DNA of 64,000 nucleotides from Escherichia coli (GTDB taxonomy: Bacteria; Pseudomonadota; Gammaproteobacteria; Enterobacterales; Enterobacteriaceae), in the NCBI RefSeq assembly GCF_041248615.1, contig NZ_CP158426.1. One strand, given 5' to 3'. The stretch's first letter is position 1, and each line of letters opens with the position of its first letter. Under the pieces are notes generated by a model, which was given only the letters and a program-made list of their open reading frames with translations, was not told the origin of the DNA and did no database searches. Positions 53,837-61,802 of this stretch are shown piece after piece. Both the position numbers and the translations under genes were made by a program.

Positions 53837-56800
53837 TCAGAGGTTTTTATAACATGTCGCATGAGCAAACCCAAGCTTTTCATATACACTTTGCTCACCT
53901 GTTGCCAGAGAAATTACGTATTGTTCGCTTGAGTTTGCGGGACTAGATGACCAATACATATTTGATTGAAAACCAGCTTCAGTCGTGTAATGCCCCATAT
54001 CTCCCCATTCACTGTACAGTGACCCGATGCCTCGGGAACGACTATGGTTTAAATGGTCTCCAAGGGGAAGTGTGTAGCCATTGCTACTGCAAAAATTTTC
54101 AGCAAGGCTGTATATCATGAAAGCATCGCCGGCGTTCACCCACCAACTCTTCACTCGGATTTCGTATATATAGCTAGGGCCGCCTGTTTTTGGCGTCGCC
54201 GTAATCCTCTCCCATTTGCTGCCGACATTTTTAAATGTCACTTTACCGGTAGCATCAACATCGACCCAGGAGCCAGAGCTTGAAAACTCATAATCAGCCG
54301 CCGTTTTTCCTGGAGCAAAGTTGTCATTATTCAACTGATAATACGCCCCGGTGAATCCCTGCGAAGGGAATGTAGTTGTTGGTAGGTTAGCACCATTGAC
54401 CAACACTGTACCGCTCATTATTTTGTCTTCTGCGCGAGTGAATTGTATTGTGGTACTCAGACCCGCTTGATGAACACCATTCAATACAGGGATCAGCGTT
54501 GCGATACCCTCTCCGCCGCCTGTAACAGTGGCTTTGTAATCACCGTTGATATTTTGACTGTAATCAATTGCGCTAATTTTCACATAGGGCACGTTAGTAC
54601 CTGATTGCACAAATTCCATCCCTTCAGAAACTTTGATCGGATTGCCTGATATATCGTACAAAACAAGATGTAGCTCAGCACTATCGGTATAGTCCCCTTT
54701 CAGTGATGACCGATTGTTCTTAAGGACGGACTGCGAGGCGTCAGCCGGGCCTGCCACCAGCGTTATATCTACTGTTTGCATTCCACCAGCGGTCGTGACT
54801 GCGCTTACCGTGACGCTACCTGTCATCGCTCCTTTCACGCTTGTTGTCGCGATTCCGTTTTGATCGGTCACCGCTGTTAATGTCGTTAATGTGGCAGAGC
54901 CGCTTTTTAAGGCGAAGTACACAGTGAGACCTTCGATCAGGTTACCACTGCCATCCTCAACCGTTGCCTTTAAGGTACTTAAATCACTGTTGGTGGCGGC
55001 GATAGTCGATGGATCAGCGATAAAGCTAGCAACATGTGCGGTGCTTGAGTTGCCAGTGACTTTCACGGTTGTCTGTGTCTGTATTGTTACGCCGTTATGG
55101 AACGATGCAGTCACCGTATATGTACCGACTTTATTGCTGGTCAGAACGACTGGTGCCTGACCTGAAGAGTTGGTTCTCACTTTTCCGCCACTTAACGTTG
55201 CACCTTCTGGCGTTACGCTAAAGTTGATGACCTGACCTTCCACTGGAGTGCCATTTGCAGAAGTTAGCGTTGCCGTCAGAGTTGCACCTGTTGGGGAATT
55301 GACACCGATAAGCGGGCTGGACGCCGTGAGTGTCAGTTTTTCATCAATAGCCTCCAGTTGTTTCTCAATTGAGGCTCCATTCGCCAGGGATGCTTTCACC
55401 ATATACGAACCGTTTCTTTCGGGCGTCATGGTGACCTCGGCTATACCCTGCGTATTAGTAGACACCGTATTCTGGCTGATGATCATTTGCGAGGATGGCT
55501 CTGCACTGAATGTCACGGGTTGATGCGCAACCGGGTTGCCAAACTGGTCGTTAACGTGAGCTTTAACTGCTACGTCTTGTGCGACCATTACCTGACCTTC
55601 AGGTATCTCCAGACTGGTAAACGTCGCAGAATTAACATCTGCACTGGCATTCAGTAATCGCGAGATGACTTCAGTAGGTTTATCTGCCAGAGAGGCTGAA
55701 ACTGTTTTCAGTCCGACCTCGGTGCTTGTCACAAGAATTTCAGCGAATCCCTGACTATCCGTTTCAACGCTGGTGCTGCTTAGCGTGACGGAGGTTCCGC
55801 GGAAATTAACTTTTATGCCTTCTACCGGGTTGCCGTTAGCGTCAGTGACGCTTGCCGTCATGGTTGCGCCCTCGGTCGTGCTGACGACGAATGAGTATAC
55901 AGAGGTTAAGGAGGTCAGTTTTGCGGTACCAGCATCGGCAATCAACGTCACCTGTTTCGTATCACTGACACCATAATTGTTCACGCTAACTGTCACGGGG
56001 TAGGTGCCGGATTTTGTACCGCTCAGTGTAACTTCAGCCTTGCCGTTGATGTCTGTAATGGCGGAACCGCCTTGTCCGAGAGTGAAGCTTGCGCTCACAT
56101 CTGCCGGTAGCGTGAATGTCACCGCCTCATTGGCTAACGGGTTGCCGTTTCCATCAGTCACTGTTGCCTGAAGTGTGGTCATCCCAACGTTATTGGCGAT
56201 AAAGTTGTCCTCGGTAACGTTAAGATTAACCTGCGCAGTGAGCGTATCCGCAGTAAAGTTCACCACCAGTTGTCCGCTCTTACCGCCAGCCATCGATGCT
56301 GTAACAGTATGAGCGCCTGCTTTTGTACCTTTCAGCGTGACTTTCGCTTTGCCTTCAGTATCCGTAATCGCTTTACCGCCATCGCTCAGGTGAAGTTCGC
56401 CCTCACATCTTCCGGCAGAGTAAATGTTACCTCAGTGTTGGCTATCGCATTGCCCTCTGTATCAGCGACTGTTGCTGTGAGTGTCGTGAGATCGTTATTG
56501 TCGGCAATCACCGGATCCTTAGAGGCTGCCAGCGAGATTTCAGCATTCGCGACGTTCGGCACATAGGTCACTGTTTGTTGCATCGAATCACCATTTTCGA
56601 GGGTTGCCGTCACTTGATAAACCCCGGCTTTTGTAGCGGTAAAGCTTGCGTAAAAATTGCCGTAGTAGTTGGTAGTATATATACCGTTATTACTGGGGGT
56701 CACGCCTTCACTTGGTGAAACGCTGAGGGTCACCTGATGCTGGGGGACACCGTTGCCGTAATTATCCTTCACCTCAATATACAGACGGAGACTGTATCAA

Positions 56801-59800: not shown

Positions 59801-61802
59801 CCTTAACAGGTTTGTCATTTTCATCTCTCAGTTCTACCGTCACCTCGATAGGATTGCCGGAGAGATAACGGTCCTTATCAATTTTAATTGACGAGTGAGT
59901 TCGGGATGACGAAACAGAAATGATATTCACCACGGCGGGGGCTTTAGCCGCATCCACACCGTTCAGCTGTGGCATCAGCGTTAGCGTGCCAGACATCGCT
60001 CCTGTGGTCAGGACTTGGGTATAGCTTCCGTCACCATTATCTTTCCAGTCAGAAAGGGTGATGTCCTGAACACCTTCGTGACGCGTCGAGAGCATCAGCC
60101 CGATAACAGGATTACCTGCTGCATCATGAGCAATAAAAGTCAGTGTGGCGGTTGAATGGGAATCCGCACTCAATGTTTGGGTACTTAACGATACCGAGGA
60201 ATCTTTCTGGCTTAGCGCAGGTGCCTGAACGACCACCATGCTTTGTTCACGATTCGAAAAATTGCCTTTGACATCTTCAGCGGTGACTTCAATCGGCCAG
60301 GTGTTATCGGTTTCTGGCGTACTGGTGAACCGGTACGGCGGCAGGGTAACCAGAATATCTTTACCCGTTGTGACCACTTTACCACCGGCAGCTTCCAGAG
60401 CGGTGGCTTCGACGTTATAGCCTTTCAGGGCATATTTGGTTTGTAGCGACGAAACCAGTGATTTCACTTCTCCTGACTTCCCTGTCACGGGGTCTGTCAG
60501 GGTCAGGCGAACCAGTTCTTTTTTGCGATATTCCAGAACGATGTTGTTGTTGCGATCCACCAGATCATAACGGCTGCCTGCAAGGCTACGCCGTGCAGCG
60601 ACTTCGTTCGGGTCAAGCTGTTTCTGCATTGCGCTGCCAGGTTGCCAGGTAAAATCGACGGCAAAACGGGTGTCATTTTCACCCTGTTTACCCTGGCGTT
60701 GCTCCGCGCTGAAGGTCATCAGCGGGAAGGGGGTATAGTTAAGTCCAGCGGTTATGGCATGAGGATTACTTTGCCGATCGTCTTTATCGAACAGGGCCAC
60801 TTCATCGCCATAATACTGTTCATAGACCAGTTTACCGCCAAGGTGCGGCCAGGCGGGTAGCCAGCCTTCTGCGCGTACATCCCAGCCATTGGCCGGGCGT
60901 GCTTCATAATCGTTGTCCAGTTCAGGTGCGCTGCGCCAGTTGGTCAGTCGCAAATAGCCGTTACTGCTTAATTTTAGATAGTCGCGCCAGTACTCTGCGC
61001 CAATGCCGGCGCGGGAGTGGTAACGGCTAAGATCGTGGTCGAAAAAGAAGTTGATGCCCGACATCCATGTGGGAGTGAAATGACGCCAACCCAAGCCGTT
61101 GTTAATCTGCGTACGCTCGTCAGTACGGTGGAGAGTATGCTGGCTGAAAAAGAGATTATCAGGCGTTTCATACCACGGATGGAGAAAATCGAACTGGGAA
61201 TTCTTCAGGCTAAAATCTTCATCCACGCCCAGCGTGATTCTTGCGGTACCGAAGCGGCTTAACCAGTCTGTCATTACCCCTGAAGCCTGAGAAGAGGCCC
61301 ATCCACGCGCCATATTTGCCGCTTGCTCGCTGTTCATATCCTCGGCGAGCAGAGACCCGATTTGCTGTGAAGTACTGGCTATCTGTTGCTCAAGGTTGCC
61401 ACTGCTATTACCCGGTGGCGGGGTTAAATTATTTTCACTAACTTGTGCCGGGACATCCAGTTCATCACCCTGGCGGACATTATCAAAACCTCGAGCAAAC
61501 GTACGAAACTGGTTGAGTTTGCGTAACTCAGCCACCGAAATACCGAAACGTTCGGCAACGCTTTGGGCCGATTCCAGCGCTCCAAGGGTGTAGGGCACCG
61601 TATTGGCATTTGCAATGGCGATTTGTGCAGGAACTTGTAGATGGGTTGCAGCGTTTATCACACCTTGTGCTGCCGCAGCCATAGGGAACGCAAGTTGAGT
61701 TACCAGGCAGATACCCGCAGTTAAGCGGCGTAGTTTAATTCCCATCCCGCATAAGATTTGTCGGTCATTTATTTCTTCTCCACTTCTCTTCTTCGTAGCC
61801 AT
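53837..61802 (-). pseudogene. yeeJ: inverse-autotransporter adhesin YeeJ (LysM + intimin/invasin beta-barrel + Big-domain array), split into three reading frames
   Basis: N-terminus MATKKRSGEEINDRQILCGMGIKLRRL; ORFs 56769-61877, 56386-56772 and 53837-56293 are consecutive Big-domain segments in three frames; frame changes near 56780-56790 and 56389-56390. Confidence 0.8.
57480..58697. repeat. two tandem ~609-bp near-identical repeat units inside yeeJ
   Basis: 57531-57830 is nearly identical to 58140-58440 (offset 609 bp = 203 codons); encoded ~200-aa blocks are near-identical. Confidence 0.85.

Follow-up and report, generated by a model that had tools for sequence, protein, structure and literature searches.

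Is a large adhesin gene that is read in three different frames a true pseudogene or the product of sequencing errors, and why is it so long? This question is raised by positions 53837-61802 (minus strand) of a 64,000-nt stretch of Escherichia coli DNA, hereafter the window, where an earlier note, made from the sequence alone, described an oversized yeeJ gene that was either pseudogenised or affected by sequencing error at short homopolymers. We put at about 90% the probability that the broken gene is the chromosomal yeeJ, for a type Ve inverse autotransporter adhesin, in its long form, and that it is inactivated as a full-length gene by two small deletions. The whole window matches, at 100% identity, the E. 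coli NRZ14408 chromosome (NZ_LT599825.1), whose RefSeq entry R2K29_RS09835, annotated as 'Ig-like domain-containing protein, frameshifted', spans exactly window 53837-61802. This yeeJ pseudogene, a long, UMN026-type allele, measures 7,966 bp and is distributed in three consecutive minus-strand open reading frames (ORFs), each in a different frame, at 56769..61877, 56386..56772 (128 aa) and 53837..56293.

Comparison with intact yeeJ alleles, which had been proposed as a check, located the lesions. In the nearest genomes, OW967178 (isolate 362) and CM183923, yeeJ forms one ORF of 7,983 bp without interruption, coding for 2,660 aa, and base-by-base alignment with OW967178 over 8,301 bp showed zero substitutions and only two gaps. 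The gap nearer to the start of the gene is a 16-bp deletion with its junction at 56785/56786 (minus strand), where the gene-strand sequence GCAGGCGAGACAACCA is missing (gene nucleotides 5017-5032, codon 1673); the junction shows a microhomology of just 1 bp, and the deletion breaks a Big_1 domain about a quarter of the way in. The other is a 1-bp deletion at 56389/56390 (minus strand; gene nucleotide 5430, codon 1810), which changes ACG CTG AGC to ACC TGA GC on the gene strand and, equivalently, CAGCGTG to CAGGTG on the plus strand. Each deletion shifts the frame by -1, which puts three frames in use, and the two lesions lie 397 bp apart. The alignment and the ORF list thus bear out the two same-direction frame changes that the earlier note had placed near 56389-56390 and 56780-56790, as well as its out-of-frame middle segment of 128 codons, but one detail has to be amended: the GG at 56389-56390 does not derive from GGG, because the ancestral plus strand reads GCG. 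The second change is a 16-bp deletion and not a short indel.

We then evaluated whether these lesions exist in the DNA of the organism. In a survey of 5,426 complete E. coli genomes, 2,672 matched the site of the 16-bp deletion and 854 that of the 1-bp deletion; the deleted form appeared once at each site, in the NRZ14408 record only, and the other 2,671 genomes matching the first site were uninterrupted. Such uniqueness to one record agrees with either a private mutation or an error. Decisive evidence came from independent data: the exact products were looked up in a collection of independently made assemblies, including Logan assemblies, which derive from an unrelated pipeline. The 128-aa ORF, whose existence requires both deletions, was found on 12 contigs; its carriers comprise GCA_014863425.1 (on a 5.35-Mb contig), GCA_025155495.1 (on a 96.6-kb draft contig) and the Logan assemblies of ERR2935576 (the same contig in nine samples) and SRR27379322. 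Look-ups of the flanking ORFs, of 1,686 and 818 aa, gave the same picture, whereas the 1,677-aa form defined by the RefSeq start had no exact match in the collection, whose gene caller starts nine codons upstream and thus returns the 1,686-aa form. The four carrier loci that we read match the window at 100% identity, both deletions included, for as much as 12.4 kb, and the Logan contig ends within the duplication of Big domains, as expected of a short-read k-mer assembly. Because they recur exactly in independent assemblies and runs, the deletions belong to the DNA of the strain or clone itself and did not originate in a single faulty assembly; sequencing error is very unlikely.

A rival reading, in which the true gene is intact and the frameshifts come from sequencing or assembly errors in the long-read assembly of NRZ14408, deserves attention because the reference study on this gene (Martinez-Gil et al. 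2017; PMC5595812) warns that, yeeJ being repetitive, its frameshifts in public genomes could have arisen during assembly. Additionally, the NRZ14408 assembly was probably obtained with PacBio RSII, as inferred from a methods reference in PMC10790570, and all the private indels of this record are deletions. Nevertheless, both lesions are seen again in two further NCBI assemblies and in about ten runs assembled by Logan, neither of them changes the length of a homopolymer, and one of them spans 16 bp, so that we regard an artefact as very improbable. Residual long-read errors in unmappable repeats were considered and ruled out, since each site occurs only once in the genome and neither falls in the strongly repeated part of yeeJ, an internal duplication of 84-88% identity. 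Likewise, in about 160 kb compared between NRZ14408 and OW967178 we found 20 single-nucleotide polymorphisms (SNPs) and zero indels in intact genes (about 150-160 kb), which also argues against an error-prone assembly. One 1-bp gap, next to an IS3 insertion where the alignment ends, seems to be an effect of that edge, and the only other true indels with respect to isolate 362 are a T-run polymorphism at 37360, common to 47 genomes, and a private 1-bp deletion at 40339. Of the two explanations offered in the earlier note, pseudogenisation is therefore supported and errors at short homopolymers are not.

Both deletions arose on the branch leading to the NRZ14408 clone. The 1-bp deletion by itself is predicted to yield a product of 1,819 aa, but exact-product look-up did not find this single-lesion intermediate, and every place with the 1,686-aa ORF also has the 128-aa ORF; either deletion may thus have come first. 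As a mechanism for the larger lesion, we considered slipped-strand deletion between two CAGTCT direct repeats that are 22 bp apart in the intact sequence, but such an event would take out 22 bp and not 16, and we discarded it. As a separate observation, the two private 1-bp deletions, at window 40339 and 56389, have a common plus-strand context, with a C lost from CAG[C]G, and both are situated within short palindromes (CAGCGCTG for 40339, CGCTCAGCG for 56389); they might possibly have a common mutational cause. The deletion at 40339 falls within an already decayed phage-integrase fragment, and window 37435-40650 is a tRNA-Asn-associated islet containing two frameshifted integrase remnants, followed by an RHS element at 42735-46916; these integrase pseudogenes also occur in isolate 362, indicating old decay and not assembly noise.

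The identity of the gene is supported by its position, its sequence and its domains. The neighbours on the C-terminal side of yeeJ match those of K-12 (a yeeL-type glycosyltransferase family 9 gene, shiA and amn), and in sister genomes, likewise in K-12, mtfA and a tRNA-Asn gene lie upstream of it. The gene thus occupies the place of the yeeJ orthologue, between tRNA-Asn (asnT) and yeeL-shiA-amn, and its nucleotide identity to K-12 yeeJ in blastn comparisons is high, 96-97.6% outside a 906-bp insert (see below). The deduced protein shows the architecture of an inverse autotransporter, with an N-terminal PF11924 barrel and a passenger of Ig-like repeats C-terminal to it. The β-barrel (aa 144-419; 60546..61373, minus strand) matches the full length of the IAT_beta profile (PF11924) with 377 bits, versus a cut-off of 22.3, and an E value of 5.6e-113, and is located upstream of both lesions. 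The intact protein, of 279.9 kDa, contains this barrel, also with 377 bits, and 16 Big_1 stretches. Weaker matches correspond to LysM at aa 78-99 (16.1 bits, under the cut-off of 20.9), Invasin_D4 (25.5 bits versus 27) and Intimin_C, a C-type lectin domain (20.6 bits versus 27), all of them sub-threshold, and a sequence search of the C-terminal 320 aa against PDB found no match. The LysM domain of YeeJ is reported to bind peptidoglycan (PMC5595812). Judged by its full IAT β-barrel, its Big_1/Invasin_D3 array and weak matches placed as in the published YeeJ, the gene family is yeeJ, in agreement with the identification made in the earlier note.

How much of this architecture can still be produced? 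No single uninterrupted frame runs from the signal peptide to the lectin tip, and a stop follows residue 1,677. The first frame (56769..61802, minus strand) has 1,677 codons plus a stop (TAA/TGA at 56769-56771) and would encode 1,672 native residues followed by VCILR, a protein of 177.9 kDa; other possible start codons are at 61829, used by the gene caller of the collection to give 1,686 aa, and at 61745, equivalent to the current K-12 start. Its Pfam content comprises IAT_beta, 10 Big_1 stretches and nine Invasin_D3 stretches. The middle segment (56386..56784, minus strand) holds about 132 native-frame codons with parts of two Big_1 domains, and ends at the TGA at 56386-56388 made by the 1-bp deletion; the mechanical ORF of 128 aa within it starts from a GTG. 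The C-terminal segment (53837..56389, minus strand) is in the third frame, and has 850 native codons plus a stop; it contains the sub-threshold Invasin_D4 and Intimin_C matches, and lacks both a signal peptide and a barrel. By window segment, the Big_1 stretches therefore number 10, two partial and six, and the lectin-like tip is out of frame. In the mechanism that we propose, the 16-bp deletion at codon 1673 shifts the frame and translation would stop five codons on; the 1-bp deletion by itself would lead to an immediate TGA at codon 1811, and would have no added effect with the upstream lesion present. As deduced from these frames, the only possible product would be a 1,677-aa (178-kDa) protein, which would retain the signal sequence, the LysM-like region and the β-barrel, together with about ten of the Ig-like domains, and would lose the distal 988 residues, including six to seven Ig-like (Big_1) domains and the lectin-like tip resembling Invasin_D4/Intimin_C. 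The downstream pieces of yeeJ have no export signal and would be dead sequence.

The use of three frames, with both shifts in the same direction, could also suggest a programmed or phase-variable layout, in which ribosomal frameshifting or reversible slippage restores full-length YeeJ, all the more because surface adhesins are often phase-variable. However, neither site has a repeat tract or a slippery run, slippage cannot reverse a 16-bp deletion, the 1-bp deletion creates an in-frame TGA, and the sequence is uninterrupted in 2,671 other genomes. We give this reading next to no credence, and consider programmed frameshifting and phase variation excluded on the grounds of sequence context and of the uninterrupted alleles.

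A different matter is whether the truncated YeeJ of 1,677 aa could still be exported, displayed on the surface and promote biofilm formation, the adhesin being shortened and not abolished. Passenger secretion by inverse autotransporters begins at the barrel-proximal end, which makes the display of a truncated YeeJ conceivable. YeeJ and autotransporter scaffolds have reportedly been used to display foreign proteins on the cell surface (PMC9328734, PMC13101318). The first frame keeps the whole IAT β-barrel together with ten Big_1 domains, and variation in length by three Big domains has no detectable functional effect (PMC5595812). Conversely, with the break inside a Big_1 domain the tip is left as a partial, unfolded domain, the lectin-like C-terminus is missing, and the second lesion being tolerated downstream, in an allele that is private to one clone, gives no sign of selection to keep the product. 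We thus judge a shortened but active adhesin unlikely, although considerably less so than an assembly artefact. More speculative is a scenario in which the two yeeJ deletions and the private 1-bp deletion 16 kb away, with its CAG[C]G context and palindrome, stem from one localised error-prone repair episode, and in which the tip-less 178-kDa YeeJ is still displayed and was favoured in this multidrug-resistant clinical clone, for instance because biofilm behaviour changed or an exposed antigenic tip was lost; we deem it improbable.

Several points weigh against the inactivation of yeeJ by two deletions as we present it, or limit its reach. Two lesions within 397 bp, with zero SNPs in 8.3 kb, represent more clustering than is predicted for independent neutral hits, and their mutational history might comprise one event or two; a single repair event is conceivable but has no support. 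In addition, the other assemblies and runs may all re-sequence one strain, in which case the lesions are real there but need not be spread among independent isolates; a literature search on the accessions of these assemblies and runs gave no match. Finally, in K-12, yeeJ showed no expression in the laboratory conditions that were assayed (PMC5595812).

The extra length of the gene has a separate explanation. K-12 MG1655 yeeJ (b1978) is intact and measures 7,077 bp by its old start, or 7,020 bp in the current annotation, and the earlier note was right in considering the window gene longer, its intact counterpart having 7,983 bp; this extra length is not anomalous. In blastn comparisons, positions 1-3209 of the long allele correspond to K-12 1-3209, and positions 4093-7983 to K-12 3187-7077; the difference is a segment of 906 bp specific to the long variant, at 57711..58616 (minus strand) or, given a boundary ambiguity of 23 bp, equivalently at 57688-58593, and 7,077 plus 906 gives the 7,983 bp of the intact allele. 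Two length variants of yeeJ have been described, of which the long, UMN026-type one has 906 bp more, encoding three more Big domains; the addition derives from a repeated section of yeeJ, and a functional difference between the long and short variants was not detected (PMC5595812). Our assignment follows the definition in that study and the blastn comparison with K-12. The 906-bp segment sits within the internal duplication of about 84-88% identity, and the frameshifts are 900-1,300 bp downstream of it in the gene. The extra length is the published long variant, unconnected with the frameshifts.

Further observations concern the surroundings of yeeJ. Convergent with yeeJ, window 52523-53575 (plus strand) carries an intact gene for a glycosyltransferase family 9 protein of 350 aa (WP_000477867.1), whose K-12 counterpart, yeeL, is annotated as a pseudogene. 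On the other side, collinearity with the sister genomes breaks at window 62130, within tRNA-Asn (asnT), of which a remnant corresponding to the 3'-terminal 16 nt (CCAGTCAGAGGAGCCA) remains at window 62115-62130, 313 bp upstream of yeeJ. Beyond this break (window 62115-64000 onward; NZ_LT599825.1 2081400-2131399 read) lies an element of more than 50 kb that is absent from isolate 362 and contains genes for a frameshifted IS3 transposase, a ComEC/Rec2-like protein, an ABC-three-component system, a VirB-type type IV secretion system and MobC, with proteins bearing recent and rare WP numbers; it has the appearance of an integrative conjugative element that entered at asnT. Farther away, window 11511-28480 contains a complete pdu operon for a propanediol-utilisation microcompartment, with pocR/pduF, annotated as intact and adjoining a cobalamin riboswitch and cobUST.

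In all, the yeeJ locus is an ordinary pseudogene and is correctly annotated as one; both the adhesin and the clinical strain are known, and the case is of little consequence except for bookkeeping: the length variant and the tendency of the gene to be disrupted are both already published, and disrupted alleles are commonplace. Two consequences are of practical use, because the caveat of 'assembly error' that is often put on frameshifted yeeJ alleles can be dropped for that of NRZ14408, and because the combination of Δ16 bp at codon 1673 and Δ1 bp at codon 1810 provides a clone-specific marker for NRZ14408-type isolates.

Compared with known systems, the locus is closest to the long variant of YeeJ (PMC5595812), with which it shares its location by tRNA-Asn (asnT), the IAT β-barrel and the Big_1 array, besides a putative LysM-like region and a putative lectin-like tip, as well as the same 906-bp extra segment relative to K-12, with an intact allele of 7,983 bp in the sister genomes; the NRZ14408 allele differs in its private 16-bp and 1-bp deletions, by which the frame ends at residue 1,672 plus five. 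K-12 MG1655 YeeJ (b1978) is the product of the orthologous gene in the orthologous position, but lacks the 906-bp segment of three Big domains and is intact. The likeness extends to the type Ve proteins intimin and invasin, in the PF11924 barrel, the Big_1/Invasin_D3 repeats and the weak, sub-threshold matches of the tip to Invasin_D4 and Intimin_C, although the passenger of YeeJ is much longer; in the assays reported, YeeJ promotes biofilm only, with no adhesion to epithelial cells or extracellular-matrix proteins (PMC5595812).

Disrupted alleles of yeeJ were previously found in 15 strains with frame-shift mutations, besides 38 with an intact gene, and truncations were linked to the recombination-prone asnT site (PMC5595812); likewise, a premature yeeJ stop occurs in the B5/H24RxC outbreak clone of sequence type 410 (ST410; PMC10786849). 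We also observed other single-base deletions in A runs of the same yeeJ allele, in the Logan assembly ERR13362458 and in the ENA metagenome scaffold ERZ28571178, at the equivalents of window 56321 and 56372 (AAAA to AAA and AAA to AA), with the NRZ14408 deletion sites intact; these may be real independent frameshifts or homopolymer errors, and their presence says little, because the query, the 818-aa ORF, selects for frameshifted alleles. As in the earlier disrupted alleles, the distal passenger of YeeJ is lost in NRZ14408 through frameshift or nonsense changes, whereas its pair of lesions is different from theirs and specific to the clone.

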